IMG/VR virus record: IMGVR_UViG_3300007609_000005
Span: 32,001 to 96,000 of that record
DNA: 64,000 nt
Origin: a virus
Reading direction: 5' to 3' (one strand)
Part shown: piece after piece, positions 3,363-63,017 of the stretch
Layout: every line of letters begins with the position of its first letter
How positions within the stretch are numbered: position 1 is the first letter of the stretch
Notes under the pieces: generated by a model
Databases searched by the model: none
The model's input: the letters and a program-made list of their open reading frames with translations, nothing else
Told to the model about the DNA's origin: nothing
Position numbers and translations under genes: made by a program

Positions 3363-3938
3363 ATGTTCATAGGTACTTATTTTGTAAAACGACTATTCTA
3401 TTTTAATATATTCATATCACTCTTAACATTCTTCACACCACTTGGTGAATATTTGTTAATGGGGTTTGGATTAATTGACTTTTGGAACCCGATTCAATTG
3501 ATAGGATACCTATTTCTTCATGGAAATTTTAATCATCTATTTGGAAATATGATTGGATTAATTGTTTTTGGACCTATTGTAGAACAATATACAGGTGCTA
3601 AAAAATTCATTTTATATTACTTAATAATGGGAATAGTTGCCGGTATATCTCAATTGTTATTAGGTTCATCCAATGCTATGTTAATTGGTGCATCCGGTTC
3701 AATATTCGGATTGATAACATTTGCATTCTTATTGAACCCAAATATGAAATTCTTGTTTGGAATACCATTTAAATTGGTATTCTATGCAATTATTGGATTT
3801 GAAATATTTGCACTGTTCGGTCCACTCGATAATATCGGACACATCGCCCATTTATTCGGTGCATTGACCGGACTTCTTCTATTCATTTACGAATGTGGTT
3901 TCAATCCACAGAAATGGAAAAAATTATACTTGTTTTGA
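3363..3938 (+). CDS. Rhomboid intramembrane serine protease
   Basis: Multiple TM helices, HLFGNM, catalytic GASG, AHLFG. Confidence 0.9.
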   Translation: MFIGTYFVKRLFYFNIFISLLTFFTPLGEYLLMGFGLIDFWNPIQLIGYLFLHGNFNHLFGNMIGLIVFGPIVEQYTGAKKFILYYLIMGIVAGISQLLLGSSNAMLIGASGSIFGLITFAFLLNPNMKFLFGIPFKLVFYAIIGFEIFALFGPLDNIGHIAHLFGALTGLLLFIYECGFNPQKWKKLYLF

Positions 3939-4387
3939 TAAAAGAAAAAATTTCAAATACATATAGGTACTTACTAATATGTTCCCCCTCTATGGGTGAA
4001 TATCATACGGTAGATTACATGGAAGAAAAATATAATTCCCTAATAGGAATCCATAATAAAGATCTATCAGAAAAGTATAAGCCTTTACTTCGCCTATCCG
4101 AAGAATTCTATAATTGGATGGATGTATTCCAAGTATCCGATGAAGAAGTTGAACGTATGGGGTATAATGTCTTATATTGGACATTGAAATTAAAACATTT
4201 TCCACCATTTAATGAACATATGAAAATTTTCAGAGAGATAATAGGTGACCCAAATGACATCAACCTAGATAATAATTGTTCAATACACCCACTCATTAAT
4301 GAAAGAATAGAAACTATAATACTCTCGCAGCCACAAATTAAAAGAAATATTAAAATATATGAGATATTAAATTATATTATATCATGA
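3935..4387 (+). CDS. Hypothetical protein with C-terminal RxxK[LI]xx[LI]L motif
   Basis: ORF (TTG start overlapping upstream stop; start uncertain); ends RNIKIYEILNYIIS. Confidence 0.65.
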   Translation: MIKEKISNTYRYLLICSPSMGEYHTVDYMEEKYNSLIGIHNKDLSEKYKPLLRLSEEFYNWMDVFQVSDEEVERMGYNVLYWTLKLKHFPPFNEHMKIFREIIGDPNDINLDNNCSIHPLINERIETIILSQPQIKRNIKIYEILNYIIS

Positions 4388-4752
4388 TGTTGCACAATTT
4401 TCACGAAAAAATAGATAACTTACTAGAAAACCATATTGAATATTACCGTAATTGGTGTATTGATGTCATACAAGACCTAGATGAAAAAATGACCCAGAGT
4501 GAATTAGCATTCTTTCTTTGTGTCTGTATATCTAAATATGGAACATATGATAAAATAAATGAAGTTACTCGCCTAAATTTCAAACACTATGCTGAACATT
4601 TGTCAAACATATTACACGATGATGAAGATTTAAAAAAACAATTTAATACATTTTTAACAGACCCAGACTTACATAAAAAAATCCCGGATACATATACGAA
4701 TCAAGAAATCCGTGAAATAAAATTAAAAAGATTATTGTCGGAAGAGAAATAA
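4384..4752 (+). CDS. Hypothetical protein with C-terminal motif
   Basis: ATGA overlap; ends IREIKLKRLLSEEK. Confidence 0.7.
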   Translation: MMLHNFHEKIDNLLENHIEYYRNWCIDVIQDLDEKMTQSELAFFLCVCISKYGTYDKINEVTRLNFKHYAEHLSNILHDDEDLKKQFNTFLTDPDLHKKIPDTYTNQEIREIKLKRLLSEEK

Positions 4753-4802
4753 TTTGTACATTTGTAATTCCAAATACGAAACATTAATAAAAACAAAAAG
4801 AA

Positions 4803-6602
4803 ATGCCAGAGAAAATTCAACTAAACCAATCAGAAGAAAACGAGATGAAAGAACCTAAAATTGGTAAATTTCGTCCAAAGAAATTGATGAAAACATTCCT
4901 TATGGTAAAAGGTAGAGGAAGAGTTCATACAGAAACTGCATTCCTTTCAGGAAAGGCACTAAGTGGCATGTTAGAACACGTTACTTTTAAATTGACAATT
5001 TGTGACGAAGGCACGGTCGATTTCGAAGAAGTTGATACCAACGAATGTGATGAAAATATGATGAAACGCCTTCTTGATGATATTACAGAACGTAATGTTG
5101 TATTGTATGCCGAAAAAACGGTTATCCCATCATTGAAGTTCAGTGCCGGTGAAGAATTCCAAAACCAATTGGTCTATTTGGAAATCGAAGAAGAAGCCAA
5201 ACCATTCAACAAACTACAAGGAATTTTCAACGAAAAACCAGAAGTTTCGAATAAAGCCAATGATTTCCTTGGAGATTTACTTGGGATTGACCCATCTGAA
5301 TCAAATTCCGAATCAAATGAAGAAGAAACTGAGGAAGAACAGGAAGAAGAAGTAACAGACACCACAGAAAAGCCCGAAGTGGTCGAAGAAGAAACTTCTG
5401 AAGGCTCTATGTATAAAGAGATGATGAAAGAAGCACTGGCAGAAGCAAATGCTAAGAAGAAAGCAGAACTTCAAAAAAGAATTGACCAATGTTTGGATGA
5501 TAAAAAGAAGCAAACATTTGCTCTCCAAACTGCTGAACAGCAACTTGATAAAATTGAAGAAGATCTAAAGATCTTGAATACTCGAAAAGAGTCAATGCAA
5601 CCACAACTCGACCCCAATGGATATGTTTTCTATGTAGCACCCGGTGAGAATTCCGGTGTTGATCCAACTGATACAACAACCATCGAAGTAATTGAGAAAT
5701 TAGCACCGTTGATGAAGTTGAATGTTCCGGCAGTACTCGATGTACTCGGACAAACAACATATGAGATCAGAATTGATCGTAAAGGGGTGTATGAAGACAC
5801 TGAAATTGCAGAAGATGAAATTAATGAACTTGTTATGAACTTTGACATTTTGGGACAAACAACAATGACAAATAAAAATGTTTTCTCATACCAAGGTGAA
5901 TTGACATGGCACCAGATTGTTGATAAACTTTTGAAACTTGGTTTTGAACAAGATTCAGAGTATGACAAACTGTGTGGATCTCCTTCTTACCAAAGTACTA
6001 CTGATAATTATGACACATCAAGTGTTGATGCGGAATCAGATGAAAATCCTACACCGGAAACTCCTGTGGGCGAAAAAAGTGAAAACTTCAAATCAAGAAA
6101 ACTTCGTTCATTCAAAGAACAGACAATCGTTATTCTTGATGCAAACGGTAGTGATGTAGCACCTTCGGTAGATGTTGAAATTAATGATGACGAAGAATAC
6201 CTTGACCTATATGTTGATGGTGCGAAACTTGATGTGAATGTAAGAACACAAGGATTCGCCAACATTATGACCAAAGAACAATTTGATAGAGTAATGGAGG
6301 AAGACGGTGAATTATTAAGTAGTTGCGATGGGTGGTTCAATGGTGTAGTTATTCCTAACTTCACAGGTGATATTGAAATCACAGGACATGATTACTCAAC
6401 CGGTGAATTCAAAACTGATTTTGATGAATCAAGTTTCATTAACCACCAAGAAGGTTTTGAAACTATTAATGTTGGTCTTAACTTCCCAGTAGGAACAGAA
6501 GTATATGAATTAAACAAAGATTTTTCATATCCAATGAATGTTTTGAGAGATGCAATGAACACAGGCGTTCTTGATGAAGACTCTGACAATTCAGAGGATT
6601 AA
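4803..6602 (+). CDS. Large acidic hypothetical protein with central coiled coil
   Basis: 599 aa ORF after a TAnnTTTG promoter (4757), followed by a terminator. Confidence 0.8.
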   Translation: MPEKIQLNQSEENEMKEPKIGKFRPKKLMKTFLMVKGRGRVHTETAFLSGKALSGMLEHVTFKLTICDEGTVDFEEVDTNECDENMMKRLLDDITERNVVLYAEKTVIPSLKFSAGEEFQNQLVYLEIEEEAKPFNKLQGIFNEKPEVSNKANDFLGDLLGIDPSESNSESNEEETEEEQEEEVTDTTEKPEVVEEETSEGSMYKEMMKEALAEANAKKKAELQKRIDQCLDDKKKQTFALQTAEQQLDKIEEDLKILNTRKESMQPQLDPNGYVFYVAPGENSGVDPTDTTTIEVIEKLAPLMKLNVPAVLDVLGQTTYEIRIDRKGVYEDTEIAEDEINELVMNFDILGQTTMTNKNVFSYQGELTWHQIVDKLLKLGFEQDSEYDKLCGSPSYQSTTDNYDTSSVDAESDENPTPETPVGEKSENFKSRKLRSFKEQTIVILDANGSDVAPSVDVEINDDEEYLDLYVDGAKLDVNVRTQGFANIMTKEQFDRVMEEDGELLSSCDGWFNGVVIPNFTGDIEITGHDYSTGEFKTDFDESSFINHQEGFETINVGLNFPVGTEVYELNKDFSYPMNVLRDAMNTGVLDEDSDNSED

Positions 6603-6620
6603 GAATGAAATCATATAAAC

Positions 6621-6653
6621 AAAAAAGGGATTCTATTCGAATCCCTTTTTTTT
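6621..6653. terminator. Bidirectional intrinsic terminator
   Basis: AAAAAAGGGATTC-TATTC-GAATCCCTTTTTTTT between convergent genes. Confidence 0.85.
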
Positions 6654-6665
6654 ATTCAATACATA

Positions 6666-8968: not shown

Positions 8969-9036
8969 AACCTATATATTACAATTAAATTCTTCTTATT
9001 ATGGTAATTTTTTGTTGTTTGTTTAAAAAAAAGCAT

Positions 9037-9077: not shown

Positions 9078-10652
9078 ATGATTATAAACAAGAACATACA
9101 CGAAAAACTCCTTACGTCAATCCAAGAAATGTTGATCGATACGAAAGTTAATCTACCATACTATGGTGAATTTAACTTATTGGTGAACTTTCACGAGTCC
9201 AATAACCTTCCAACATGTGGTGTAAATGTTACATCAAAGGGGATGAACTTCTACTACAATCCGAAGTTCCTACAACACATGTCCCAAAAAGAAGTGAACT
9301 TCGTAACACTACACGAAGATTTCCACTTACTTTTCAATCACCCACGTAGAACAATCACGGGTCAATATAATCACAAATTGTCGAATATTGCACAAGATAT
9401 GATTATCAACTACATCATTTGGGACGATATCTCTCACAATTTTGTAGAAATTCCAAAGGATGAGAATGGTAAGAATATGGCACTGTTCCCACCAAAGGAA
9501 TACAAAGGTAAATTGATCTATGAAGAAGTCTATACTTGGTTGAAAGACGAAAAAGAAAAGTGGGACGAAGAACAGAAGAAAAACTCCGGTGATGGTGATT
9601 GCCAAACATGTAACGGCTCTGGTCAAAAACAAGACCAAAATGATCAAGGTCAAAGTGATGGTCAAGGTCAAGACCAAGGCCAAGGTCAAGGTGATGGTCA
9701 AGGTGATGGTCAAGGTGATGGAGAAGGTCAAGACCAAGGTCAAGGTCAAGGTGATGGTCAAGGTGATGGAGAAGGTCAAGGTCAAGGTGATGGTCAAGGT
9801 GATGGACACAATCACGGTCAATCAGGCGAACCTTGCCCAGATTGTAATGGCACGGGTAACCAAAATGGTATGGATTCATCTGGTAAGCCATCTTATGGTC
9901 CATATGGACAAAACCCATCCGGAGATGGTTCTATTGATACATGGTCAAAAGAACAGATCTTTAAGGACATGGATCAGAATGATGGACAATATATGGATTC
10001 CCACATCACCGATGATGTTCCTGAGGACATGAGAGAAACAATGGTACGAGATGCCATGGAAAGATTGGCTGCACGAGGACTTGCATCAGGTAATATTGAA
10101 ACAACTCTGAATAAACTTCAGAAGAAACGAAAAGATTACTTGAAAGAAATCAAACGTTCAATCTCAAATGAGATCTTCGGTACTAAAAAACAAAAGACTA
10201 TTACTCGAATCAATCGTAGAGGTATCAAAGGTCTTAAAGGTAACCGAAAGACCAAGACAACAATCAACGTTATTCTTGATACATCCGGTTCTATGGGTGG
10301 TCAAGGGACATTTGAAAGAGTTCTGTCGTATGTTTATAGGAACGACATTGAAATAAACTTCATCCAAGGTGATACTGATGTGAAGTGGGTTGAGAAGTTC
10401 AAGAAGAAACGTCAATTGGAAACAATGAAAATCCGAGGTCTTGGTGGCACTGTGCTCCAACCTAGCGTGGATTACTGTGTCGAACACTATAATGAGTACA
10501 ATACTTGTATACTTACGGATGGTTACACAGATACTCTTGACCTCTCTAAGTTGAATGGACGAGTTCTAATGATTTCTGTTGGTGTTGAAGTACCAACTAG
10601 CCGACCACCAAAGAAAGGTGTGAAGCAAATCGTACTTGAAGAAACTCACTAA
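9078..10652 (+). CDS. Metallopeptidase-like/VWA-domain protein (DUF2201 type), probable MoxR ATPase partner
   Basis: HEDFH (HExxH), MIDAS DTSGS, GGT and TDG motifs, Gly/Gln/Asp linker. Confidence 0.85.
   Translation: MIINKNIHEKLLTSIQEMLIDTKVNLPYYGEFNLLVNFHESNNLPTCGVNVTSKGMNFYYNPKFLQHMSQKEVNFVTLHEDFHLLFNHPRRTITGQYNHKLSNIAQDMIINYIIWDDISHNFVEIPKDENGKNMALFPPKEYKGKLIYEEVYTWLKDEKEKWDEEQKKNSGDGDCQTCNGSGQKQDQNDQGQSDGQGQDQGQGQGDGQGDGQGDGEGQDQGQGQGDGQGDGEGQGQGDGQGDGHNHGQSGEPCPDCNGTGNQNGMDSSGKPSYGPYGQNPSGDGSIDTWSKEQIFKDMDQNDGQYMDSHITDDVPEDMRETMVRDAMERLAARGLASGNIETTLNKLQKKRKDYLKEIKRSISNEIFGTKKQKTITRINRRGIKGLKGNRKTKTTINVILDTSGSMGGQGTFERVLSYVYRNDIEINFIQGDTDVKWVEKFKKKRQLETMKIRGLGGTVLQPSVDYCVEHYNEYNTCILTDGYTDTLDLSKLNGRVLMISVGVEVPTSRPPKKGVKQIVLEETH
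9645..9805 (+). repeat. Coding tandem repeat (GGTCAAGGTGAT-type units) encoding GQGD/GQGQ
   Basis: Visible imperfect 6/12-bp tandem repeats. Confidence 0.85.
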
Positions 10653-15426: not shown

Positions 15427-15813
15427 TCATCTTTGGTAATTATTCTGTACTGCATATATGATTGACTTGAACCGGGTTTCAATTTCTTCATCTTGTGCCT
15501 TTTTTAATTCACCAAGATTTCTAACTATTCCTTTCAGAGCCTTTATATGTTCAAATTTTAAAAACATCAAATAAGGGAAGTATCTTATAGGCTTTTTGTC
15601 CTTATTCCATCGACCATACAATGCCGCCTTGAAATTTTTCTTAGTAATTTCCACTATATCATATTCATAATTAATGACATACATTTTAAGACCATATCCA
15701 AGCACAATATCATAATCATCTAACTTTAAAAGGCTTAGATCACTTATATGATAAAAATTCCTATCTTTAACATGTATCTCATATTCCTCATTGAATTTTT
15801 TAAGATGTTTCAT
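15427..15813 (-). CDS. Hypothetical protein with N-terminal MKHLKKFNE peptide
   Basis: ORF; likely paralog of 15800-16207. Confidence 0.75.
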   Translation of the reverse strand: MKHLKKFNEEYEIHVKDRNFYHISDLSLLKLDDYDIVLGYGLKMYVINYEYDIVEITKKNFKAALYGRWNKDKKPIRYFPYLMFLKFEHIKALKGIVRNLGELKKAQDEEIETRFKSIIYAVQNNYQR

Positions 15814-16541: not shown

Positions 16542-17360
16542 ATGTCATTTATAAAGAAGTATAACGAACTGAATAGTGATAAATATAAATTGGCAGGAGA
16601 AGAATTAACTAAACTAGGTCACTCTGGCCGCGGGAAAAAACTTATTGAATGGGGAGAACATAAACGATATTCGGAAATATCGGAAAAGGCAGAATATGCT
16701 AGAAATATTTATTCCAAATACGGAAAATTGCGAATTTATGTGGAGGGATTTCATGACACCAGGGATAAACAACTTTGGGGAGATTTAATTCCGGATGAGT
16801 TTGATTATTTTATACATTTTTCGAATGATGTTACAGTAGAAGAGTTTGGAACTGTTGATGATGGAAATGATTCGGAGATACTACACTTCAATCTTTATAT
16901 TATTCCAACCCAAGAAATGATAGACCGACTTTTCAACGCTGATCACAAAACAACTGACAAACAACTTATAACTTTTTACAAAGACGAACTTAGCATTGAT
17001 GATTTTTCATCTTACTTCTTTTTATGCACTTTTACAATCGAATTTAAGAAAGATCTCGAAAATCAAAAATTGAATTTATCAGATATAAGTATTTGCCCGG
17101 TTGAAATGGACTTTGGTAAAATAACATTAAAAACAAAAAGGGATGCAGCCAAATTCAGAGAGCTATTGTATTCAATATTCAATAAAGACATAGACTACCC
17201 AACATATCCGAATAATACACTTTCAAAAAAACCAATGTATGATGAAATTCAAGAAACATTGGTAGAACTTGATGTACTTACGAATTACGGACTTGAAATT
17301 GAAGATATTGCAGAACAGATAAAAATATTTTCAACAAATAAATTGTATAAAGAGATATGA
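16542..17360 (+). CDS. Hypothetical protein (MSFIKKYNE), paralog of next gene
   Basis: Shares LGHSGRGKKL, DYP and YGLEIEDIAE segments with 17357-18109. Confidence 0.8.
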   Translation: MSFIKKYNELNSDKYKLAGEELTKLGHSGRGKKLIEWGEHKRYSEISEKAEYARNIYSKYGKLRIYVEGFHDTRDKQLWGDLIPDEFDYFIHFSNDVTVEEFGTVDDGNDSEILHFNLYIIPTQEMIDRLFNADHKTTDKQLITFYKDELSIDDFSSYFFLCTFTIEFKKDLENQKLNLSDISICPVEMDFGKITLKTKRDAAKFRELLYSIFNKDIDYPTYPNNTLSKKPMYDEIQETLVELDVLTNYGLEIEDIAEQIKIFSTNKLYKEI

Positions 17361-21328: not shown

Positions 21329-22498
21329 ATGTCAGAAGAAAAAGAAAAAAATGTGCAACGGATTAAAGACCGAGAGGCAAAATCCGAAAGTGGAATGATC
21401 TCTAACCAAGAGTTCTCTCCACGAATGAAAAACCTCACAAAGAAAGAGGAAGCCTACTTCCGTTCAATGTGGCCAAAGTATGGTGTTCTCTTCATCACAG
21501 CAAAACCAGGTGTTGCTAAATCAGCAATTGCCCGTTCCATTGCTGAGAAGATGGGATTCCGTTACATGGACCTTCGCCTTTCAATGGTTGATGAGACTGA
21601 TGTCGGTCTTTTCCCAAATGTGAGTGAAGTTGATGGTTCTAAAGTTCTTGATCACGTTGTTCCACGTTGGGCAGTTGAATCCAACAAGCAACCAACCATC
21701 ATCCACTTCGAGGAGTTGAACCGTGCAACCCAACAGGTTCGTAATGCAGCACTTCAAATCCTTCTTGAAAGAGAAATCGGTACGAATTTCAAATTCAATG
21801 ACAATGTATTGATGATGGCTTCAGGTAACCTTGGTGACGAAGATGGTACTGATGTCGAGGAATTTGACTCAGCATTGAACGGTCGTCTTATCCACGTTCA
21901 ACACACATTGAGTGTAGATGAGTGGATGGAAAACTTCGCAAAGGAGAATGTTCACCCAACAATCGTTGGATATCTGAACTCTCACCCGGAGAAACTTTAT
22001 GTTGATCCAAACCAGGATGACAAATTCAATGCATACGCATCACCACGTTCATGGACAATGATGAGTGAGTTTATTGTGAAGAACTACGGCATCAATGCAA
22101 CTGCGAAGGATTTCCTTCCTGCATTGAAACAACAAGCCGGTTCTTATATCGGTGCAACTGCGGTGAAGTACATCCAATACTGTGAGGATATGTTGCGTAT
22201 CAGCATCATGGATGTATTGAACAACTACAAGAAAGTTAAAAACGATCTTGAGCAGTACAACCGTGACAAGAAGTCTGAACTAATTCAATCTCTTAAAGAG
22301 ATGGAGGTAACAGAACTTACTGATAAGCAGATGAAAAACTGCGTAGCTTTCTTGAAGACTGTGGATGATGATGAATTGACTGCATACCTTCTTCACCTAG
22401 TAGATACCAATTACGAAGTGACAAGTGATAAACTGAAGAAATTTCTTTTGAATTTCAGAGATACACTTCAGACAATCCACAGTATTAACAACAAATAA
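21329..22498 (+). CDS. MoxR-like AAA+ ATPase
   Basis: Variant Walker A AKPGVAKS, Walker B IHFEELNRA, SPRSW; start reassigned to MSEEK. Confidence 0.85.
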   Translation: MSEEKEKNVQRIKDREAKSESGMISNQEFSPRMKNLTKKEEAYFRSMWPKYGVLFITAKPGVAKSAIARSIAEKMGFRYMDLRLSMVDETDVGLFPNVSEVDGSKVLDHVVPRWAVESNKQPTIIHFEELNRATQQVRNAALQILLEREIGTNFKFNDNVLMMASGNLGDEDGTDVEEFDSALNGRLIHVQHTLSVDEWMENFAKENVHPTIVGYLNSHPEKLYVDPNQDDKFNAYASPRSWTMMSEFIVKNYGINATAKDFLPALKQQAGSYIGATAVKYIQYCEDMLRISIMDVLNNYKKVKNDLEQYNRDKKSELIQSLKEMEVTELTDKQMKNCVAFLKTVDDDELTAYLLHLVDTNYEVTSDKLKKFLLNFRDTLQTIHSINNK

Positions 22499-26511: not shown

Positions 26512-26862
26512 ATGAAGTTAGATTTTCAATTACTTAGACACAACTATATCAAACGACTTGTTATATTTTCTCTATTTCTATATAAGAACCAAAGAAAAAA
26601 TGAAGTGACATATTCCAACTTAGTCCGTTCGTTCATTGACAAAAGACTTAATATAAACATAGAATTGGATATTGATGTTGGTCCAAAAATGCCAAAGGTC
26701 GATGTGAGAAATGTTCTATTAGATGACATACTTGGTGATTCAGATATGGATGTGGGAGTAATGAATCTTGTCATTGTTAATTTCAAAACAGGACACAAAG
26801 AGGAAACACTACAAATAAATTTGAACGATGAAGAAAAATACGAACTATTTTTAGAATCTTAG
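26512..26862 (+). CDS. Hypothetical protein
   Basis: 116 aa ORF with internal RNVLLDDIL. Confidence 0.6.
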   Translation: MKLDFQLLRHNYIKRLVIFSLFLYKNQRKNEVTYSNLVRSFIDKRLNINIELDIDVGPKMPKVDVRNVLLDDILGDSDMDVGVMNLVIVNFKTGHKEETLQINLNDEEKYELFLES

Positions 26863-42986: not shown

Positions 42987-43308
42987 AATTAAAAAAAGTA
43001 TATTAATATCATTATTCACAACCCAAGGAAATTATGTGAGCAATGATGGTATATTCCGAGTTGGTCCGGACTTCAAGCCATTTGACATTTTCATATTTCA
43101 TAAATTAGTGGAAAGCTCAATATTACTTGAGATAAGTACTGGTATTGATGGTTCGGAAAAAGATACTAAATACAACTGGTGCTATATACTCAACCATAAT
43201 AGACTTATAGAAAAAATCAAATCAATAGATGAAAAATTTACAGACTATGATTGGAATTATCTATTAAGATTGTCAAGGGAAAATAAACTAAACAATATTC
43301 TAAGTTGA
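42976..43308 (+). CDS. Hypothetical protein with C-terminal motif
   Basis: Ends RENKLNNILS. Confidence 0.7.
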   Translation: MTSEIKKSILISLFTTQGNYVSNDGIFRVGPDFKPFDIFIFHKLVESSILLEISTGIDGSEKDTKYNWCYILNHNRLIEKIKSIDEKFTDYDWNYLLRLSRENKLNNILS

Positions 43309-44449: not shown

Positions 44450-44880
44450 TGTATAAAATAGAACGCCATAATCTAGTAACCGAAACCATTAAAGACATTC
44501 TTTATGTTTTTGGTGGTAGGAAAATCTATACCATAGATACACATTCATCGTCTTATAATAGTAAAAAAGCATATTTTCTAAATACTGAAGAAGAAATCCC
44601 CATACACATATACACGAAACTGTATAATGCACATCTTTTAAGTATTGAGGGTGATGTCTACCTTGGGGAATCAAAACCATGGTATAATCAATTGAAAAGA
44701 TTTCTACCCAAAGACCCAAGTGTGGAAAATAAAGTTATAACAGTTTACACATTTAACGAACCATTGATACGGTTTCGAGTACACGGCTTAATTTCAAGTG
44801 GTGATTGGAAACAAACTGAACGGGATACATTGAAGACAATGAAGCGTAACATAAGAATAAATGAAATTTTGAGTAACTAA
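44449..44880 (+). CDS. Hypothetical protein with C-terminal motif
   Basis: Ends RNIRINEILSN. Confidence 0.7.
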   Translation: MYKIERHNLVTETIKDILYVFGGRKIYTIDTHSSSYNSKKAYFLNTEEEIPIHIYTKLYNAHLLSIEGDVYLGESKPWYNQLKRFLPKDPSVENKVITVYTFNEPLIRFRVHGLISSGDWKQTERDTLKTMKRNIRINEILSN

Positions 44881-49381: not shown

Positions 49382-49645
49382 ATGAGCCACCAACAAGGAG
49401 AAATGACATTTCAAGAATTCAATGAGAGAGTTATGACCACGAAACATTCTGTGTGGTTTGATGCATTACATATCCAAAAAAGAAAAAGACTTTATAGAGA
49501 ATGGGGATATTTCTCAAATGACCTAATTGGGAAAAATAAAAAACCATCACTCAGAAAGTTTATTTACAACATAAGAAATAATAGACAGTATTATACAGTA
49601 CCCAAGCAGGCATTGAGAAAAAATATTTTAGATAAAATACTATGA
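49382..49645 (+). CDS. Hypothetical protein with C-terminal motif
   Basis: Ends RKNILDKIL. Confidence 0.65.
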   Translation: MSHQQGEMTFQEFNERVMTTKHSVWFDALHIQKRKRLYREWGYFSNDLIGKNKKPSLRKFIYNIRNNRQYYTVPKQALRKNILDKIL

Positions 49646-50610: not shown

Positions 50611-51111
50611 ATGGAACCATCTGTGGCTTTCACATCCTTCGGTATTCTTTTGGGCATTATATTCACTTGTATGTGTCTTCTAATATTCACCTTGACCATT
50701 TCAAATAAATCACTTAAAAATGAAGTGGATTCACTTAAAAAATATAGGGAGAAATTTTCAAAACGAAAGAATAAACTAAGAAAGGGAATTTATCAGACAA
50801 AATGGTTTAATGTTAAGGATAAAGAAATAAACCCAAACAACTATGCATCATGGTCTACGACTTTTACAGTACAAGAACTTGGAGAAAAGACCGGTAACAA
50901 AACAAAGGTTGAAATAATCGATTGCTTTTGTAGTGACCGTTCAAAGTTAGAAACATTGGATTATTATAAGAATTGGTTGAATGATAAATATGGTGGTTAT
51001 GTCGATTTGAGTAATATTGAATGGATAGAAACAAAGTCCAAAGACGAAATAAGGGGAGAAAAATTAGAAGAGATCCTATCTTCCGAAGATACAGATAAAC
51101 AATATTCATAA
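50611..51111 (+). CDS. N-terminal TM protein with C-terminal motif
   Basis: RGEKLEEIL; similar architecture to 54540-55004. Confidence 0.7.
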   Translation: MEPSVAFTSFGILLGIIFTCMCLLIFTLTISNKSLKNEVDSLKKYREKFSKRKNKLRKGIYQTKWFNVKDKEINPNNYASWSTTFTVQELGEKTGNKTKVEIIDCFCSDRSKLETLDYYKNWLNDKYGGYVDLSNIEWIETKSKDEIRGEKLEEILSSEDTDKQYS

Positions 51112-51176: not shown

Positions 51177-52376
51177 ATGGCAGTAAAGCTTATATTAACC
51201 CAGATAATGAAAGACGAGGCACACGTTGCCCATCGAATGCTGAATTCGATTAAACCCATTGTTGATGGCATCGTTGTTATCGATACCGGTTCAACAGACG
51301 ACTCTATAAATATCGTAAAGAAATGGGGTGAAGACAATGGTGTAGAAACACACGTATTCGAAAGACCATTTGATAACTTTGAAGACTCACGTAACGAATC
51401 TTTTAAAAAGGCAAGAGAAGTATTCCTTGGTCGAGATGATAATCACACTTACTACAATTTTTGGTTGGACTTTGATGAACAATTGATAATCGACCCAAGC
51501 TTCAAAAAGAATAAACTCAATAAAGACCTTTATATGTTCAACACATATATCAAGACGATGAAATATACTCGTAATGAACTATGTAGATTGGACAAGGATT
51601 TCCGATTCTATGGTCCGGTACATGAGTTTATTGTCCCGCCAAATGGACCAGATGGGAAACCCGATAAAACAATTACATCTGCACTCTTAGATGGTATTAC
51701 TGTCAAGGTTGAAATGGATGGTGGTTCATGGCAAGGTAATATATCACACAAATATAAATCACATGCACATTCATTGGAGAAATATATCGATGAAAGTAGG
51801 GAAGATCCGAGATGGGTATTTTACACTGCACAATCATATCACGACTCTGCATGTGTTCCGGAAAATAAACAAGAGAATGATGAACGGCTAAGAAGATCTT
51901 TGTACTATTATAAGGAAAGAGTTCAAAGACCAGATGGTTATTATGAGGAGATTTTCTACTCACAATACCGAATTGCCACGATAATGAGGGCAATGGAAGA
52001 ACCTTGGAACTTGTGTCTTAACGAATTCTTAAAGGCACATAGTATGGATCCACTAAGGGGAGAACCAATAAAAGCAATTTCCGATTATTATTTAGCACTT
52101 GGTGAATGGAATAATGCATATATATTCACCTCACTTGGTAAAAAGTTATACCATGGAAATAACCCATACCCAAAACGACTTCTTTTTGTTGATGAAACCA
52201 TGTATGTTTGGAAATTCTTGGAGGCACATGCGGCAGCCTGTTTTTATACAAATCGAAAATCTGAGGCAAAACAGACATATTTGGAAATGAGTTCAATAAT
52301 GAAATCTCAACCACAGTTTTTCACACAAGATGATATCCAAAAAATACAATCCAATGCACAGTTTTTCACTCAGTAG
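51177..52376 (+). CDS. Glycosyltransferase family 2 with TPR repeats
   Basis: IMKDE, DTGSTD, LDFDE, GPVHE, then a helical TPR region. Confidence 0.85.
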   Translation: MAVKLILTQIMKDEAHVAHRMLNSIKPIVDGIVVIDTGSTDDSINIVKKWGEDNGVETHVFERPFDNFEDSRNESFKKAREVFLGRDDNHTYYNFWLDFDEQLIIDPSFKKNKLNKDLYMFNTYIKTMKYTRNELCRLDKDFRFYGPVHEFIVPPNGPDGKPDKTITSALLDGITVKVEMDGGSWQGNISHKYKSHAHSLEKYIDESREDPRWVFYTAQSYHDSACVPENKQENDERLRRSLYYYKERVQRPDGYYEEIFYSQYRIATIMRAMEEPWNLCLNEFLKAHSMDPLRGEPIKAISDYYLALGEWNNAYIFTSLGKKLYHGNNPYPKRLLFVDETMYVWKFLEAHAAACFYTNRKSEAKQTYLEMSSIMKSQPQFFTQDDIQKIQSNAQFFTQ

Positions 52377-52380
52377 TTTT

Positions 52381-52740
52381 GTGAATAATGCAATAGACCT
52401 CTTCATAGTTTTTTGTTATTTCCTTGGTGAAAGGAAGTTACCAAAATATGTGAAGAGGTCTTTTTTATTCAATAATGAACTTGAAGTAAAAGTTTGGGCA
52501 CTTACTGGAAATGAGGAGGATATAACAGATGCCATCAACTCAGTATTCTTATTTGAAAAACCCACTATCACTAATTTCCATAAACTAAGAAAACACAAAC
52601 TATTGAGTAAATTCATAGAATTATGTTTAAAAAGGGAAATTTATACAAAGCCAAAGTCAATGCTGCCATATATTAGGTGTACAACAGAATCCATACAAGT
52701 AGCCAGACGTAAAAAACTTAAAAAGATATTAGGTAAATAG
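52381..52740 (+). CDS. Hypothetical protein with C-terminal motif
   Basis: Ends RRKKLKKILGK; start uncertain. Confidence 0.6.
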   Translation: MNNAIDLFIVFCYFLGERKLPKYVKRSFLFNNELEVKVWALTGNEEDITDAINSVFLFEKPTITNFHKLRKHKLLSKFIELCLKREIYTKPKSMLPYIRCTTESIQVARRKKLKKILGK

Positions 52741-54539: not shown

Positions 54540-55004
54540 ATGAAACCATTGACAATGTATATTATTTGTGCGTTATTAATACTTGCAATAATTATAACTG
54601 TTATATCATATCAATCCAAAATTAATTCACTGAATAAAGAATATCATGGGTCAATATCAACTGTGAAAAACTACTTAAAAGACCAACGATCATTAAAGGT
54701 AGGTGATGTCGGTATTATTCGTAACTATAAATTGGAAGTCACATCCACCGGTGAAAATTTTAAAGTTGACTTTGAAGTTATAATAACTGATGTGAGTGAG
54801 AAAGATGCAAAAATTCAAATAACTGATATGTCAAGTGTTTATTCATATGCAAAAGACCCATCAAACCATCAAAGCATAATAAACTTTGTTGATAAAACTT
54901 GGGTATCAAAATCTACAATAAGTCCAATTATCGGAGCAAAATCATTAAGAAACGATAAGATAGAAAAGTTATTAAACGAATACGAAGATAAAGAAAATGA
55001 TTAA
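54540..55004 (+). CDS. N-terminal TM protein with C-terminal motif
   Basis: RNDKIEKLL. Confidence 0.7.
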   Translation: MKPLTMYIICALLILAIIITVISYQSKINSLNKEYHGSISTVKNYLKDQRSLKVGDVGIIRNYKLEVTSTGENFKVDFEVIITDVSEKDAKIQITDMSSVYSYAKDPSNHQSIINFVDKTWVSKSTISPIIGAKSLRNDKIEKLLNEYEDKEND

Positions 55005-55473
55005 ATTAGTAGTTGCAATGTCTAATAACCATGTAATTGGCAAAGACAATAAACTTATATGGAAACAATCCAATGACCTTAAAAGGTTCAAAGAACTTAC
55101 ATCCGGAAACACATGTATAATGGGTCGTAAAACATTTGAATCTATTGGAAAACCCCTTCCAAACCGAAAAAACTGCATCATTTCAAGAACACACCAGTCA
55201 ATAGAAGGGTGTCATGTATATGACTCATTGGAAGTTGCCTTACAAGACAACCCGGAATGCTTTGTTATAGGTGGTTCTACAATATACGAACAAACAATCA
55301 ATAAAGCAGATGAAATATATCTCACACTTGTTGATTGTGTAGTAGAGGGCGATGCATTCTTCCCACAATTTGAAGGATTCAAGATTGAATCCGAAGAACA
55401 ATACACAAAGGATGATAAAAACCAATATGACTACAAATTTATTAAATATACAAAAGAAAACAACAATGAATAA
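54997..55473 (+). CDS. folA: Dihydrofolate reductase
   Basis: VIG, DLKRFK, MGRKTFESI, PLPNR, IGG, GDAFFP. Confidence 0.95.
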   Translation: MIKLVVAMSNNHVIGKDNKLIWKQSNDLKRFKELTSGNTCIMGRKTFESIGKPLPNRKNCIISRTHQSIEGCHVYDSLEVALQDNPECFVIGGSTIYEQTINKADEIYLTLVDCVVEGDAFFPQFEGFKIESEEQYTKDDKNQYDYKFIKYTKENNNE

Positions 55474-55861
55474 CTCAACAGATGAAAACGATACTAAGAA
55501 ATATATGATGAAATTAAAATCCATCATAGTTCATAATATGAAGAATTCAGAATGGTCATTTGGCGATACAAATGATGAATTTGTATCAGAATACATAGAA
55601 ATATTTTACAACACCACATTTCAACAATGGAAGATTACAATATACACAAGTAAAGAACCAACAATCATAAATACCATAAATGCACCTCAATTATTCAATT
55701 GGTTCGAGTTTCATTATTACCGTGTTTTCTATATTGTTAAAAGTGCCAAAAACCACGTGAAAAGAAAAGAAGAAAAACGATTGGCCAAAATAACCAAATC
55801 CTTTATTGAGAATAACCAATCCGAAAATAGAAATGCTATATTTGAAGAATTACTAAATTAA
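55466..55861 (+). CDS. Hypothetical protein with C-terminal motif
   Basis: Ends RNAIFEELLN. Confidence 0.65.
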   Translation: MNNSTDENDTKKYMMKLKSIIVHNMKNSEWSFGDTNDEFVSEYIEIFYNTTFQQWKITIYTSKEPTIINTINAPQLFNWFEFHYYRVFYIVKSAKNHVKRKEEKRLAKITKSFIENNQSENRNAIFEELLN

Positions 55862-56904: not shown

Positions 56905-58785
56905 ATGAGTAAAGAAACAACAATAATAGGAATCGACCTCGGAACAACAAACTCTGCTGTATCCGTTGTAGAAAATGGAGAATCAGTTATCATACCCAAC
57001 AGTGAGGGCAAAAGAACTACACCTTCCATTATAGCATTCACCAAAGACGAAAGAAAAGTTGGTGATTCTGCTAAAAGACAAGCAGTTACCAATCCAGAAA
57101 AAACAATCTATTCAATTAAAAGATTTATCGGTAAAGATTTTACAAAATGTAAGGATGAAGTAAAACGTGTCCCATACAAAGTTACTAAGACCGGTAACAA
57201 CGTACCTGCTGTATCAATTGATGATAAGAACTATACACCTCAGGAAATTTCTGCAATGGTCTTACAGAAGATGAAAAAGACCGCAGAGGATTATCTTGGA
57301 CATGATGTTGAAAGAGCAGTCGTGACAGTACCCGCATATTTTGGGGATGCTGAACGACAAGCAACAATCGAAGCCGGTGAAATTGCCGGGCTTAAAATTG
57401 AGAGAATTATCAATGAACCAACTGCTGCTTCTCTTGCATATGGTCTTGATAAAAAGGCCAATGATACCAAGATCCTTGTGTTTGACCTTGGTGGCGGAAC
57501 ACATGACGTATCAATCCTTGATATTGGTGATGGTGTATTTGAAGTACTTGCGACCGAAGGAGATGTTCATTTAGGTGGAGATGATTTTGATAACAAGATT
57601 ATTGACCATATGGTTAATGATTTCAAATCACAACATAACTTGGATGTATCCAAAGACCCAATGGCACTACAAAGACTTAAAGAAGCAGCAGAAAAGGCAA
57701 AAATTGAGTTATCTTCATCAACATCAACAGATATCAATTTGCCATACTTGATGCCTGGTTCAGATGGTGTCCCTGTACATTATACATCAACGATGACCAG
57801 ATCAGACTTTAACAAGATCACATCTGACCTTGTTGACCGAGCAATTTCAAGTGCTAAGAAAGCACTGAAAGCCAAAAAACTAAAAAAGGATGATATCAGT
57901 GAGATTATCCTTGTAGGTGGTTCAACACGAATCCCTGCTATTCAAGAAGCACTTAAAAAAGAATTCGGCAAAGAACCAAACAAGAGTGTAAATCCCGATG
58001 AAGTTGTTGCTATGGGTGCTGCTATTCAAGGTGCTGTACTTACAGGAACAATAAATGATGTCCTCTTACTTGATGTAACACCACTCTCACTTGGTATTGA
58101 AACAATGGGAGGTGTTTTCACCAAATTGATCGAGGCAAATACAACCATCCCAACAAAGAAATCAGAAACATTTTCAACGGCTGCTGATAACCAACCATCG
58201 GTTGAGGTACATGTTCTTCAAGGAGAAAGACCAATGGCAAAAGATAATAAATCACTTGGTCGTTTCCACTTAGATGGAATTATGCCTGCCCCAAGAGGAA
58301 TTCCTCAGATTGAAGTTCTCTTTGATATTGATGCAAACGGAGTCCTATCTGTATCTGCAAAAGACAATGCATCCGGCAAAGAAAACCAAATCCGTATTGA
58401 AGGTGGTTCTCAATTATCAGAAGAAGAAATAGAAAGAATGAAGGCGGAAGCCGAAGAAAATGCAGAGGCTGATAGAGTTGAAAAGGAAAAAGTTGATAAA
58501 TTGAACACTGCAGATACTCTCATCTTCCAAACAGAGAAACAGATCAAGGAATTCGAGGACAAACTTGAAGATTCTGATAAAGAAGAACTAAATGAGAAAT
58601 TGGAAAGCCTCCGTGAATCATATAAATCACAAGATATTGATTCAATAGATGAATCTGTTGAGGCATTAAACACAACGTGGACATCCATCTCACAAAAATT
58701 GTATCAACAAACAGAGTCAACTGATACACCAGGAGAAACCGGTGATGATGACGTAACAGATGTTGATTTCGAAGAGGTGAAGTAA
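56905..58785 (+). CDS. dnaK: Chaperone DnaK (Hsp70)
   Basis: [35 protein letters not shown]. Confidence 0.98.
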
Positions 58786-58950
58786 GTTAAATTGGCCGGG
58801 TACTTTATGGTATCCGGTCAAAATAATACCAAGAAACGTTATAAATTCAGTGACAAATTCAAATATATCAAGAAAGATTAATGACTTTTTTGAAACTTAA
58901 TTGATACCCAACCTTATAAGAGTACATACAAAAAAGAATAAAAATCACAT

Positions 58951-59439
58951 ATGACAATTAAAGTTTATCCAGAAGACCTCATAAAATTAGGAGTATGGGA
59001 CTCTTATGTTTATTATGTTGTAGGATCAGAATCCGAAGCAGAAGAACAACTTAAAAAGAATGAAGAATTTGAAATCAAAGACACCGATGCATTGGTCATT
59101 GGACTATTGAAAGTTATCGAAACCAACAACCTCATTCACAGATTGAATGGTTATGTGACAGACTTCTTAACAAATAAGTCAAGTAAGATGCAGGGGAAAG
59201 CACTCATTCGCAAAAAACTCATACTCAGTGCCTTTGATAAGTTCCGTAACAAATACCCATCTTATTGGGATGCCCCAATAGATTACAAGAATGGCATTGA
59301 TAATATGGATAAGTATATTGAATCAGTTGTGGAAAAAATAGAGAATTTAGAAACACATAAAGTGACTATTCAATTCGGAACTTTTGAATACCTTAGTTCA
59401 AAACAAGTTAAAAAATTATTAGAATTCAATTATCAATGA
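58951..59439 (+). CDS. Hypothetical protein
   Basis: 162 aa ORF after AAAC-N18-TATA. Confidence 0.7.
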   Translation: MTIKVYPEDLIKLGVWDSYVYYVVGSESEAEEQLKKNEEFEIKDTDALVIGLLKVIETNNLIHRLNGYVTDFLTNKSSKMQGKALIRKKLILSAFDKFRNKYPSYWDAPIDYKNGIDNMDKYIESVVEKIENLETHKVTIQFGTFEYLSSKQVKKLLEFNYQ

Positions 59440-59957
59440 TGGAAACAAAAAGCATTCAAAATATCCAAGATAAGATAACAGTAGACCAAGATGGAAATCC
59501 GGTCATTATCACTGACCAAGATGGAAACAAACATAATTTGCAAAAACTTCTTGATGATTATGCAAATTACAAAACCGAAGATCTTAAATTAAGGAACATT
59601 GCTGAGATTTCAAACATTAAGAAAAGAAAAGCCATTGAACTAAGAGATAGGACTGATAAGGTGAAGTTTGATTCACTTGAATCACTTATTGAATTAGATG
59701 ACGACTTTTACAAAGCATCTAAAATGCTCAATGATGAACAACTTGCAATCATCAAACCCTTTAACGATAAACTGAAAGGAATTCTAACCAAGAATGGTAT
59801 ATCTGATATAGAACCAAGTGAATATGATTCAGACCAACAAGAAGTAATTTCTGTTGTTCAATCAAACCAAAATAAGATTGATGTTATATCAAAAGGCTAT
59901 AAAATAGGTGAACATATATTAAGACACCCAAAAGTAGTTTTATTTAAAAATGCCTAA
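59436..59957 (+). CDS. grpE: Divergent nucleotide exchange factor GrpE
   Basis: AEISNIKKR, C-terminal KGYKIGEHILRHPKVV; lies between dnaK and dnaJ. Confidence 0.8.
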   Translation: MMETKSIQNIQDKITVDQDGNPVIITDQDGNKHNLQKLLDDYANYKTEDLKLRNIAEISNIKKRKAIELRDRTDKVKFDSLESLIELDDDFYKASKMLNDEQLAIIKPFNDKLKGILTKNGISDIEPSEYDSDQQEVISVVQSNQNKIDVISKGYKIGEHILRHPKVVLFKNA

Positions 59958-60402
59958 TGTCGATAGAACATTTGACTACAACCACCCAAGATTAGACAAT
60001 GGTCAATATAACAAAGCATCTATTATACACTATATGAATTTTGATAGATTCGAATCACTTGAACACTTAGACGAAGGCACATTCACTCTTATGTTTCATA
60101 GGATATACACTGATGTGTATTTAGATACACCCGAAATATTGAACAATAAGAAAGATAGATTGAATCTCTTCCAACTGTTATTTGATTGGGAGGAATTTTA
60201 TGACATAGCATATAAACAGGCCATAGAAAACAGTAACATATTTGATAATTTTGATCATGTTGATAAAGACATTAAACTTTTATACACGATATCAGATAAT
60301 CATGTTGGTAAAATATTAGAACAAACTATGAATGTTTTACAAGAAGATGTTAAAAAGGAAATAAGAAGATTGAAAATGCAAAAAATAACTGATCAGAAAT
60401 GA
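59950..60402 (+). CDS. Hypothetical protein with C-terminal motif variant
   Basis: Ends [13 protein letters not shown]. Confidence 0.65.
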
Positions 60403-61460
60403 ACACAGAATATTATGATATACTAGGCGTGAATAAAAATGCCACAAAAGATGAAATTAAAAAAGCATATCGTAAGATGGCAGTTAAATATCATCCAGAT
60501 AAGAACCCTGATAATCCAGAGGCAGAGGACAAATTTAAAAAGGCTGCCGAAGCATATGAAGTTTTATCAGATGATAATAAGAAACAACAGTATGACCGAT
60601 TCGGTAAAGCCGGGTCCGGACAAGGCTTTGGTGGTGGATTTTCCATGGATGATATTTTTAGCCAATTCGGTGATATATTCGGTGGTGGTTTCGGTGGTGG
60701 TGGTTTCGGTGGACAAACTCACCGAAGAAGAAGAAGAGGTAACGACCTAAGAATAAACGTAGAACTTACACTTAATGATATTATAAATGGTTGCACAAAA
60801 AAACTAAAATACACAAGAAAAGTTGAGTGTTCAAGTTGTAATGGACAAGGTGGGACAGATGTGGTGAATTGTGGTCAGTGCAAGGGTTCTGGGCATGTTG
60901 TTTATACACAACAAACAAACTTCGGAACAATACAACAGTCATATACCTGCCCAAAATGTCAAGGTGAGGGAAACGAAATCAAAAATGTATGTGGTAGTTG
61001 TAATGGATCAGGAACAAAAAAGAGTACCGAAATAATTGAAGTTGAAATACCTAAGGGAGCAACTGAGGGAACATATTTAAAAAAGCCACTATCCGGACAT
61101 TACACGAAAAATGGAGATTTTGGTGACCTACATATACAAATATCTGAAAAACCTGAATTCAATTACATAAGAGATGGATTAAATTTAGTCCATATTGAAA
61201 CTATTTCAATTATTGATGCTATAATTGGATGTAAAAAAGAACTTACACTACCAGATGGAACAAAAACCACATATAAGATCAACCCGGGGACTGAACACGG
61301 ATCTGATGTCGTATTACGTGGAAAAGGGATTCCTGATGTCAATGGGCATTACCAACCAGGAGACATTGTTATACGTTTTGGTATAAATATCCCAACAAGT
61401 ATAACAAGAGAAGAAAGGGAATTAGTAGAACAATTAAGAAACCATAAAAACTTTAAATAA
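60399..61460 (+). CDS. dnaJ: Chaperone DnaJ
   Basis: HPD J-domain, G/F region, four CxxCxGxG. Confidence 0.97.
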
Positions 61461-62128: not shown

Positions 62129-62217
62129 TCATGACTGATTCAGCCACAGCAAGAGATAACTCCATAGTGTACTCGGAATATATTTTTAAAAGATTATAAT
62201 ATCCAAAGCAATAAAAA

Positions 62218-62568
62218 ATGAAAGGAAAAAAGAAATTTTTTTATAACGAAGAAGAATTAGATAGAATTCTAATAAACATAATAAACTCAGATAAGAGTTA
62301 CATCAAAAAGGTTAAAGCACTCGAAAAATATACCAAAAGTGCCAAGGAAAATCGATACGGTAAATGGGAATTGGGTGGTGCAGAAGAAATGGAACACATA
62401 TGTGAATATTTTGACTCTGAATATGAACTTATTGAACGGGGGCACCAACTTGAAAAGGAATCCAAAAAATCCGCAGATATAGATGTAACAAAGTTATGGG
62501 TCACAAAACCAGATGGAACTGAATATTGCCTTTGTGATAAACTATGGGAACGTAATCTTGAATTTTAA
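62218..62568 (+). CDS. Hypothetical protein
   Basis: 116 aa ORF. Confidence 0.65.
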   Translation: MKGKKKFFYNEEELDRILINIINSDKSYIKKVKALEKYTKSAKENRYGKWELGGAEEMEHICEYFDSEYELIERGHQLEKESKKSADIDVTKLWVTKPDGTEYCLCDKLWERNLEF

Positions 62569-62571
62569 TAC

Positions 62572-62742
62572 ATGAGCAATGAAGGAGAATATAACCCAGA
62601 TAAAGAGTTTACCAAACATGAATTGGCATTAGAAGTGTTAAAACTTGTTAATAATTTCAAATCTGATAATTATGAACTTAGTGAAGATGATAAATTGGCA
62701 GTACTCGCCAAATTGGTCAGTAAAAATTTAGATAATAGGTAA
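62572..62742 (+). CDS. Hypothetical protein (56 aa)
   Basis: Manual translation MSNEGEYNPDKEF...SKNLDNR. Confidence 0.55.
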   Translation: MSNEGEYNPDKEFTKHELALEVLKLVNNFKSDNYELSEDDKLAVLAKLVSKNLDNR

Positions 62743-62744
62743 TA

Positions 62745-63017
62745 CTACTTGCCATCAAGTATAGCATTAAGTTTATTATTTCTAGTAGCCTTTGCATCAA
62801 TCGTAAGCCAATGTACGCCTAGTTCAGTATACTTATCAAGTGCTATGACGTAACAGTTGTATGAATACCATTCTTCATTGGTTTCCTTAGAAATGTTGTG
62901 AATAATTGATGTTATACGAACTTTATTTTCACTAAATATTTCTTTAGTTGCATTTTCTCTGAAACTAAAGCTACAATCACAAATATCACCCACCATGAAT
63001 TTTGGTTTCTTTTCCAT
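62745..63017 (-). CDS. Hypothetical protein with C-terminal motif
   Basis: MEKKPKF start after TAnnTTTG (63023-63030, minus); ends RNNKLNAILDGK. Confidence 0.7.
   Translation of the reverse strand: MEKKPKFMVGDICDCSFSFRENATKEIFSENKVRITSIIHNISKETNEEWYSYNCYVIALDKYTELGVHWLTIDAKATRNNKLNAILDGK

Follow-up and report, generated by a model that had tools for sequence, protein, structure and literature searches.

A short peptide of the pattern R-x-x-x-[LIM]-x-x-[LI]-L stands at the C-terminal end of many otherwise unlike proteins encoded on a 132,459-bp virus contig (IMG/VR record IMGVR_UViG_3300007609_000005; 33% G+C, about half complete according to CheckV). This C-terminal tag is a portable motif on which selection acts at the level of the protein, and in a clade of huge phages of Bacteroidota type, made up of the contig and two genomes of 635 and 642 kb, about 20% of all proteins carry it. 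An earlier note had listed 19 instances in a window of 64,000 nucleotides, bases 32001-96000 of the contig, from whose first base the window coordinates below are counted. All 19 peptides were recovered at or near the ends of ORFs with the expected stops, 18 of them on the plus strand and one (ORF 62745..63017) on the minus strand.

Genes were called with our own simple codon-usage gene caller, which yielded 196 genes on the 132-kb contig; start codons are uncertain in these calls, and C-termini are set by the stop codons. The strict pattern occurs no more than 15 residues from the C-terminus in 29 of the 196 proteins of the whole contig. The enrichment over shuffled sequence is large, as the mean was 0.33 proteins when whole proteins were shuffled and 0.50 when the last 24 residues were, with a maximum of 3 in 500 shuffles of each kind. 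Elsewhere in the same proteins the strict motif gave eight matches in the remaining 35,546 positions, and its rate at the C-terminal end is thus 41-fold higher. No match was obtained in the first 24 residues of the contig proteins, nor in the reversed proteins.

A position matrix derived from the contig's own instances separates the weakest carrier (11.7) from the next protein (9.0). A carrier on the contig was defined by a matrix score of at least 11, and with two dropped ORFs added by hand the contig has 38 carriers. Eighteen of them lie in the window, beside 91 called genes, two of the 18 being the ORFs absent from the gene call. The listed peptides score at least 11 in 18 of 19 cases, including the weak variants RRKLLDTIM (11.7) and RRLKMQKIT (13.3); the remaining peptide, RNAIFEELL, falls below the threshold, and its ORF overlaps another called gene. 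The motif is also present on both flanks of the contig beyond the window. The contig consensus reads K-K-x-x-R-N-x-K-L-x-x-I-L-[ND]-[EN]-[EK], and the motif is followed by a tail of usually 0-5 polar residues, with a full range of 0 to 10.

Relatives of the contig in deposited phage records are confined to the uncultured huge phages LR756502.1 (642 kb) and LR745206.1 (635 kb) and, more distantly, LR756500.1 (462 kb). A megablast search of the contig gave just a 9% match, to LR745206.1, and no kin was found among viral contigs when these were searched with its 599-aa protein. Three genomes, of 634, 636 and 642 kb, have been described as complete and circular, assigned to the "Mahaphage" clade and predicted to replicate in Bacteroidetes (PMC7162821). 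LR756502.1 was taken whole, with 962 genes called, and tag counts for LR745206.1, LR756500.1 and the 484-kb record LR756508.1 come from samples of 100, 100 and 150 kb. In LR756502.1, 137 of the 962 proteins are strict carriers, compared with 3.7 expected and a maximum of 10 in 200 shuffles, and a looser pattern gives 173-182 carriers. The shuffles on the contig and on LR756502.1 rule out chance or amino-acid composition as the source of the tag. The two 50-kb pieces of LR745206.1 have 83 and 78 genes, of which 19 and 15, respectively, are carriers. The two pieces of LR756500.1 are at chance level (1/78 and 0/75), and the three pieces of LR756508.1 gave 0/77, 0/87 and 0/45, with no other positional signal at the C-terminal end.

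The conserved residues are encoded by varied codons, as the earlier note had observed. The arginine is written AGA, CGT, AGG, CGA or CGG and the last leucine TTA, CTA, TTG or CTT, in the proportions used genome-wide. Because synonymous codon use at every conserved position equals the genome-wide use, a signal acting in DNA or RNA, such as the promoter of the next gene, a terminator or a re-initiation site, is ruled out. The protein sequence is in turn tightly constrained. When the rest of the motif is present at the C-terminal end, position 1 is arginine in 14 of 16 cases on the contig and in 86 of 87 in LR756502.1, and it is never lysine, a residue more than twice as common as arginine in these proteins.

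Two endings of the tag coexist, [IL]-L-x-stop and L-G-I-stop, and are interchanged between homologues. In LR756502.1, 92 of 173 carriers have a single residue after position 9 and 13 have none; the commonest residue at the tenth position from the end is arginine. The 305-aa carrier of the window has 119 database homologues, and all 38 C-termini inspected end in R-N-x-x-L-x-x-L-G-I or a close variant; Arg295 is invariant in an alignment of 50 of these homologues. For the 154-aa carrier a word-based protein search finds the query only, whereas a full HMMER search finds 110 relatives. Among the 103 relatives of 100-200 aa, 97 keep the tag, and in an alignment of 75 family members with a mean column identity of 25%, the only invariant residues are W121 and Arg137 of the tag, with Lys140 conserved in at least 90%. 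In these families the tag outlives the body to which it is attached. It is also gained, lost or switched between the IL-x and LGI dialects from one homologue to another, and one LR756502.1 paralogue stops just short of it.

The bodies themselves differ, in agreement with the earlier note. After the carriers of the contig and LR756502.1 had been pooled, 220 proteins fell into 213 BLAST components, 199 of them singletons. BLASTP among the 38 contig carriers with the tag masked matched no pair, and one carrier matched an untagged protein. None of the 38 reached a Pfam gathering cut-off, which applies equally to the labels "Zn ribbon" and "DUF932-like" given earlier to some bodies. The ten largest carriers of LR756502.1 include a riboflavin kinase whose extension is tagged and a protein with a BtpA-like stretch; the other eight belong to no family. 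The riboflavin kinase gene (LR756502.1 38954-39598, minus strand) encodes the kinase domain in residues 2-128 and, after it, about 85 further residues with RNIKIRKII-E, the tag, at their end. Carrier lengths run from under 60 to 622 aa, with a median of about 110-120 aa. A membrane-like segment is present in 5 of the 38 contig carriers, and in LR756502.1 in 17 of 173 carriers versus 80 of 789 other proteins. Carriers have a BLAST homologue in LR756502.1 less often than other contig proteins do (5/38 versus 59/161, p = 0.006). The carriers are fast-evolving, mostly small and mostly soluble orphans.

Carriers are a distinct gene class. Of the contig genes, 29 have a TATATA box whose end lies 3-8 nt upstream of the start codon, and none of these 29 is a carrier (Fisher p = 0.0017). 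The genes with this box tend to begin with a peptide of the MKHLKKFNE type, and the earlier note had stated that tagged proteins never carry it. The exclusion is nearly complete: one weak overlap was seen among the 38 carriers (1 of 199 proteins, with a rough pattern for the peptide), and in LR756502.1 the two elements occur together in 2 of 962 proteins, compared with 26.6 if they were independent (173 x 148 / 962). The distance of 3-8 nt between box and ATG suggests leaderless or near-leaderless transcripts; with such a spacing the shared N-terminal peptide may partly reflect a start-site signal at the nucleotide level. The further claim that carriers lie mostly in units with TAnnTTTG or AAAC-N18-TATA elements is not confirmed gene by gene, as these were found within 70 nt upstream of 5 of 36 and 0 of 36 carriers, respectively. 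Examples of TATATA-box genes in the window are 15427-15813 (minus), 16542-17360 (plus), 30400-30708 (minus) and 34691-35263 (plus).

Carriers are also unevenly distributed along the genome. In LR756502.1 they are densest around the start of the record: the last 42 kb has 49 carriers in 91 genes, all on the minus strand, and the first 50 kb has 32 in 114. Of the latter, 24 of 32 are on the plus strand; the arrays diverge across the start of the record and in the circular genome form one region of about 55 kb.

AlphaFold2 models were examined for two carriers. The 305-aa protein is modelled as an alpha/beta protein (pLDDT 87.8) and gave no match in the PDB at E <= 0.001 in a fold search. The 154-aa protein is modelled as a long N-terminal helix followed by a small beta domain (pLDDT 94.4, and 94 over residues 141-150). 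The tag is helical at the very end of both models, with lower pLDDT in or just before it. Read as a label, the tag consists of Arg, then Asn, Asp or Glu, any residue, Lys, Leu or Ile, any two residues, Ile or Leu, and finally Leu (or Gly-Ile). Asn and Asp are typical helix N-caps, and such a sequence would fold as a self-capped two-turn helix with the Asn or Asp of position 2 as its N-cap. The hydrophobic positions 5, 8 and 9 would then lie on one face of the helix together with Arg1 and Lys4. In the L-G-I ending the Gly would close the helix with a Schellman-type C-cap and return the last Ile to the same face, which would explain why the IL-x and L-G-I endings are interchangeable.

A fixed, arginine-specific helix of ten residues on more than 200 unlike bodies, kept while these bodies diverge, is best explained by one shared receptor groove. 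The tag is therefore probably a portable label read by one common partner. The groove of this partner would bind the Arg together with the hydrophobic face and the free C-terminus close by, and the phage would thereby handle all the unlike tagged proteins as one group. The proposal of the earlier note that the tag docks or sorts proteins to one hub is in this respect the most economical reading, while no hub came to light for the second half of it. As no reader was found, the single partner is something we infer. The 5 of 38 carriers with a membrane-like segment count against a purely cytoplasmic reader. One candidate hub, a 266-aa protein that is the most conserved protein without a family (73% identical to its LR756502.1 counterpart), was discarded when the protein atlas assigned it as a T4 gp13-like neck protein.

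The leading candidate for the reader, put forward tentatively and rather unlikely in itself, is the phage's own ClpC-like/ClpP AAA+ protease. In that case the tag would be a degron or adaptor tether, used for the timed removal or deployment of non-late proteins. A proteome-wide phage disposal code, in which about one protein in five, mainly small and non-late, would be addressed to ClpC-like/ClpP, is an extension that is likewise rather unlikely. The contig encodes, outside the window, a ClpC-like unfoldase of 705 aa (contig 119132-121249) with D1, a UVR middle domain and D2 with a VGF tripeptide. This tripeptide is at the site where ClpC-type unfoldases carry their ClpP-docking loop. The protein has no N-domain, its first approximately 50 residues being of low complexity and leading directly into D1, and it is 72% identical to the LR756502.1 counterpart. 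LR756502.1 and LR745206.1, both complete and tag-bearing, each contain two high-scoring ClpP genes and a third ClpP-like gene that PHROGs identifies as the head maturation protease. One of the ClpP genes is followed by two carriers on the same strand. It is the ClpC-like unfoldase together with the ClpP pair in the complete relatives that makes a phage degron or adaptor tether the leading guess. The ClpC-like genes of the contig and of LR756502.1 are each immediately preceded by a gene whose small product has a tag-like motif with a longer polar tail. For two more ORFs upstream on the contig (160 and 201 aa), BLAST gives homologues in the cassette of LR756502.1.

Known C-terminal degrons and adaptor tails of Clp proteases (ssrA, the MuA-type C-motif 2, the ClpX-binding peptide of SspB) resemble the tag in being short, portable peptides at the C-terminal end that combine basic and hydrophobic residues. 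They can be moved between unrelated proteins and are read by one machine. As in these systems, both a Clp unfoldase and ClpP are encoded in the phage clade, the ClpC-like protein on the contig and ClpP in LR756502.1 and LR745206.1. The sequence and spacing of the tag differ from theirs, and it is encoded on about 20% of the viral proteome instead of being added by tmRNA or restricted to a few substrates. A degron is expected to have a free, mostly non-polar end; the single residue after position 9 seen in 92 of 173 LR756502.1 carriers can be compared with the polar tails of 0-10 residues on the contig. The SspB-type tether (XB peptide) docks on the zinc-binding domain of ClpX, whose family PF06689 was not found in four records. 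The phospho-arginine degron made by McsB is read by the N-terminal domain of ClpC, which the ClpC-like protein here lacks.

Several observations count against the Clp reading. LR756508.1 encodes a similar ClpC-like protein without N-domain, and HSP70, yet has 0 carriers among 209 proteins in the sampled 150 kb; its single ClpP-like match is weak. No ClpP was found on the contig, which is a fragment. The reader suggested by the capping residues and the strict i, i+3, i+4 spacing is a folded groove; a pore that grips an extended chain would have no need of such spacing. Moreover, the tail after the motif is longer on the contig (up to 10 residues) than in LR756502.1, and the motif also occurs internally in some proteins. 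Prediction of a complex between the 705-aa ClpC-like protein and the 90-aa carrier 62748-63017 (score 0.10, mark 0.34) speaks neither for nor against binding. It is because Clp and tag co-occur imperfectly that we keep the Clp reading tentative, while holding the broader label with one partner to be probable.

The tag was also compared with other peptide-based systems. The PIP-box and other clamp-binding peptides are often located at the extreme C-terminus, have the polar-x-x-hydrophobic-x-x-hydrophobic-hydrophobic layout in common with the tag and bring many unlike clients to one hub. The tag consensus, unlike theirs, has neither the Gln nor the aromatic pair, and no beta-clamp or gp45-type clamp was found (families PF00712, PF02768 and PF02916, in the contig and three huge-phage records). 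HbYX and HslU-tail activator peptides insert into a ring protein of the HslV/proteasome family PF00227, which was not found in five records. The cargo-loading peptides of encapsulins and the encapsulation helices of microcompartments are likewise terminal amphipathic peptides, which load unrelated cargo through a linker into a shell; no BMC shell (PF00936) or encapsulin (PF04454) family was found in the three tag-bearing records. Another parallel lies in organisation: poxvirus ankyrin proteins, also variable proteins of a large virus, share one C-terminal docking element, the PRANC/F-box-like domain, which plugs them into a degradation machine. That domain has about 30 residues and is read by the host Skp1, whereas the tag has 10 residues and the host is bacterial. 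In toxin-antitoxin-chaperone systems the ChAD element, a C-terminal extension of the antitoxin, is reported to be recognised by a dedicated chaperone (10.1101/2024.02.24.581848). ChAD concerns one protein per system and a SecB-like chaperone; the tag is proteome-wide.

Among the alternatives to a phage-encoded reader, the one that survives best, although also rather unlikely, is that the tag docks small non-late proteins on one host protein or structure during take-over. This target might be a host protease (ClpXP, Lon or FtsH), RNA polymerase, the ribosome, the nucleoid or the membrane's inner face. The carriers are small, evolve fast, have no known family and lie outside the TATATA-box class, as is usual for host take-over genes, and the searches described above found no phage-encoded clamp, HslV, BMC or encapsulin shell. 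The two dense, divergent arrays around the start of the LR756502.1 record would agree with this, the genome being circular (PMC7162821). The host target would nevertheless have to be very conserved, since the tag is maintained in phages that share only 25-70% identity in their other proteins.

It is improbable that the helix binds the inner capsid, the scaffold or the portal as a signal for loading many small proteins into the virion, to be injected together with the DNA. Genes for a head maturation protease and a T4 gp13-like neck protein do occur in the contig and its relatives, and a very large capsid has room for cargo. Basic or hydrophobic C-terminal helices are a recurrent means of docking cargo on HK97-fold capsid proteins, and comparable cases are the T4 capsid-targeting sequence, the C-terminal helices of scaffolding proteins and the cargo peptides of encapsulins. 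Like the tag, the T4 sequence is a short peptide common to several unrelated phage proteins, which it directs to one destination. It is N-terminal, occurs on a handful of late proteins and is cut by the prohead protease, whereas the tag is C-terminal, with no strict match in the first 24 residues, and no residue resembling a protease site is conserved beside it. Nor are carriers found in the TATATA-box class, which holds larger conserved genes; if this class is late, carriers are made at the wrong time for loading. Finally, the tag is on more than 100 proteins per genome, and some 140-180 different cargo proteins would be without precedent.

The phage chaperones offer a partner that is quite improbable, although its genes are close at hand. 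In this reading the helix recruits DnaK-DnaJ-GrpE to fold, hold or hand over small proteins. A complete set is encoded in the window (56905-61460), in the order dnaK (626 aa), a 162-aa ORF, grpE, the tagged 150-aa carrier and dnaJ. A carrier is thus inside the operon here (59950-60402), and a different one follows dnaJ in LR756502.1; HSP70 is present in the three tag-bearing records and not in LR756500.1, a distribution that matches that of ClpC. The correlation fails in LR756508.1, which has HSP70 and no tag in the sampled 150 kb. Furthermore, Hsp70 binds extended hydrophobic stretches, a mode that requires neither the capped helical spacing nor an invariant arginine.

A tag with no common reader seems equally far from likely. 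Here the capped helix would intrinsically stabilise or oligomerise small proteins, or shield their C-termini from exoproteases. The sequence would suit a self-capping helix, and the terminal helix is confidently predicted in the 154-aa model, with pLDDT 94 over residues 141-150. An intrinsic stabiliser, on the other hand, needs neither an arginine that is never replaced by lysine nor one fixed sequence on more than 200 unrelated bodies, and complete avoidance of one promoter class would not be expected of it.

The first of the hubs suggested in the earlier note, a MoxR-VWA system in which the VWA/metallopeptidase (window 9078-10652) and the MoxR ATPase (21329-22498) would capture or process tagged proteins, is highly improbable. 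Both genes are present, with confirmed domains and 66-68% identity to LR756502.1. The idea gains nothing from comparison of genomes, as DUF2201_N was found in all four huge phages tested, including LR756500.1, which is free of the tag in the sampled 100 kb. The tag also lacks an invariant acidic residue that could act as metal-site ligand, because position 2 is often Asn. Equally remote is a single hyper-diverged paralogous family of which only the C-terminal helix is still recognisable: the dense tandem arrays of small tagged genes in LR756502.1 do resemble a gene-family expansion, but carriers range from under 60 to 622 aa, include riboflavin kinase, BtpA-like, four-Cys and membrane-like-segment proteins, have different architectures in the two models, lack a BLAST neighbour after tag masking in 199 of 220 cases, and have homologues with or without the tag.

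Cells use shared peptide labels (signal peptides, degrons, clamp-binding tails) to treat many unlike proteins as one group. The literature searched holds no description of a tag such as this one, and no published phage was found there that writes one label on about a fifth of its proteome. A C-terminal motif in one earlier paper reportedly concerns ribosomal protein bS21. The main text of the huge-phage genome paper contains no occurrence of "C-terminal", "Clp" or "chaperone", and its supplements might bear on the tag (PMC7162821). Identification of the label's reader would unite more than 100 orphan proteins per genome in a single functional class that shares one fate, and would provide a handle of 10 residues for pull-downs, localisation and controlled degradation in Bacteroidota. 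It would also show how half-megabase phages organise a long infection. A disposal code, if true, would mean that a virus clears a whole temporal class of its proteins, or deploys it via adaptors, as a viral counterpart of the cell-cycle degron systems.

The carriers of the window and related ORFs are collected in the table. In four contig proteins the motif occurs internally, at residues 64-75, and a further domain comes after it; one is encoded in the window (26512-26862) and the others at contig 2879-3583, 19933-20400 and 99133-99582. The matrix scores are at least 17 for three of these copies and 11.3 for the fourth. Each protein may have arisen by fusion of a tagged module to another one.

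Tagged ORFs and related features in the window. Coordinates are window positions; tag positions refer to the nucleotides that encode the nine-residue motif.
Feature	Position	Strand	Motif	Motif position	Remarks
Carrier, 131 aa	3992..4387	+	RNIKIYEIL	4343-4369	Tail NYIIS
Carrier, 122 aa	4384..4752	+	REIKLKRLL	4711-4737	Tail SEEK
599-aa protein, decayed tag	4803..6602	+	RDAMNTGVL	6546-6572	LR756502.1 homologue (622 aa) has intact RDGKISTIL-DENKK
Carrier, 118 aa	24148..24504	+	RRKLLDTIM	24448-24474	Weak tag; tail of 9 residues
Carrier, 80 aa	24630..24872	+	REKKLKKIL	24834-24860	Start uncertain (longest ORF from 24501)
Carrier, 79 aa	25879..26118	+	RELKLNKLL	26083-26109	Four-Cys protein; ORF added by hand to gene call
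116-aa protein, internal motif copy	26512..26862	+	RNVLLDDIL	26707-26733	Residues 66-74
Carrier, 305 aa	28575..29492	+	RNELLGDLL (listed peptide)		Tag is end of helix 276-304 (AlphaFold2 model)
Carrier, 129 aa	31989..32378	+	RNHKMEILL	32325-32351	
Carrier, 97 aa	35587..35880	+	RNRKLKELL	35845-35871	TAnnTTTG box 12 nt before ATG
Carrier, 102 aa	38534..38842	+	RNDTINSIL	38807-38833	
Carrier, 103 aa	38916..39227	+	RSIKLQNIL	39189-39215	
Carrier, 110 aa	42976..43308	+	RENKLNNIL	43276-43302	
Carrier, 143 aa	44449..44880	+	RNIRINEIL	44845-44871	
Carrier, 87 aa	49382..49645	+	RKNILDKIL	49616-49642	Exactly at C-terminus
Carrier, 146 aa	50671..51111	+	RGEKLEEIL	51052-51078	Tail of 10 residues
Carrier, 136 aa	52330..52740	+	RRKKLKKIL	52705-52731	47-nt overlap with end of gene 51177..52376; added by hand
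Carrier, 154 aa	54540..55004	+	RNDKIEKLL	54948-54974	N-terminal hydrophobic helix; tag in terminal helix 133-152 (AlphaFold2 model)
Doubtful carrier	55352..55861	+	RNAIFEELL	55829-55855	Below matrix threshold; ORF overlaps called gene 54997..55473
Carrier, 150 aa	59950..60402	+	RRLKMQKIT	60364-60390	Weak tag; between grpE (59436-59957) and dnaJ (60399-61460)
Carrier, 90 aa	62745..63017	-	RNNKLNAIL	62757-62783	Joint top matrix score; TAnnTTTG box 13 nt before ATG

Beyond the genes already mentioned, the contig encodes a topoisomerase subunit, several class I aminoacyl-tRNA synthetases and a CCA/poly(A) polymerase-type enzyme. HSP70, GrpE, DnaJ, the MoxR-type AAA protein and the DUF2201 VWA/metallopeptidase protein are encoded as well, and an RNA ligase, a PRPP synthetase, a NusG-like protein and the T4 gp13-like neck protein are also present. 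Two of the synthetase genes in the window are short paralogues of 442 and 426 aa (36038-37366 and 41443-42723), and a third, larger gene (63055-64000) runs past the window edge.

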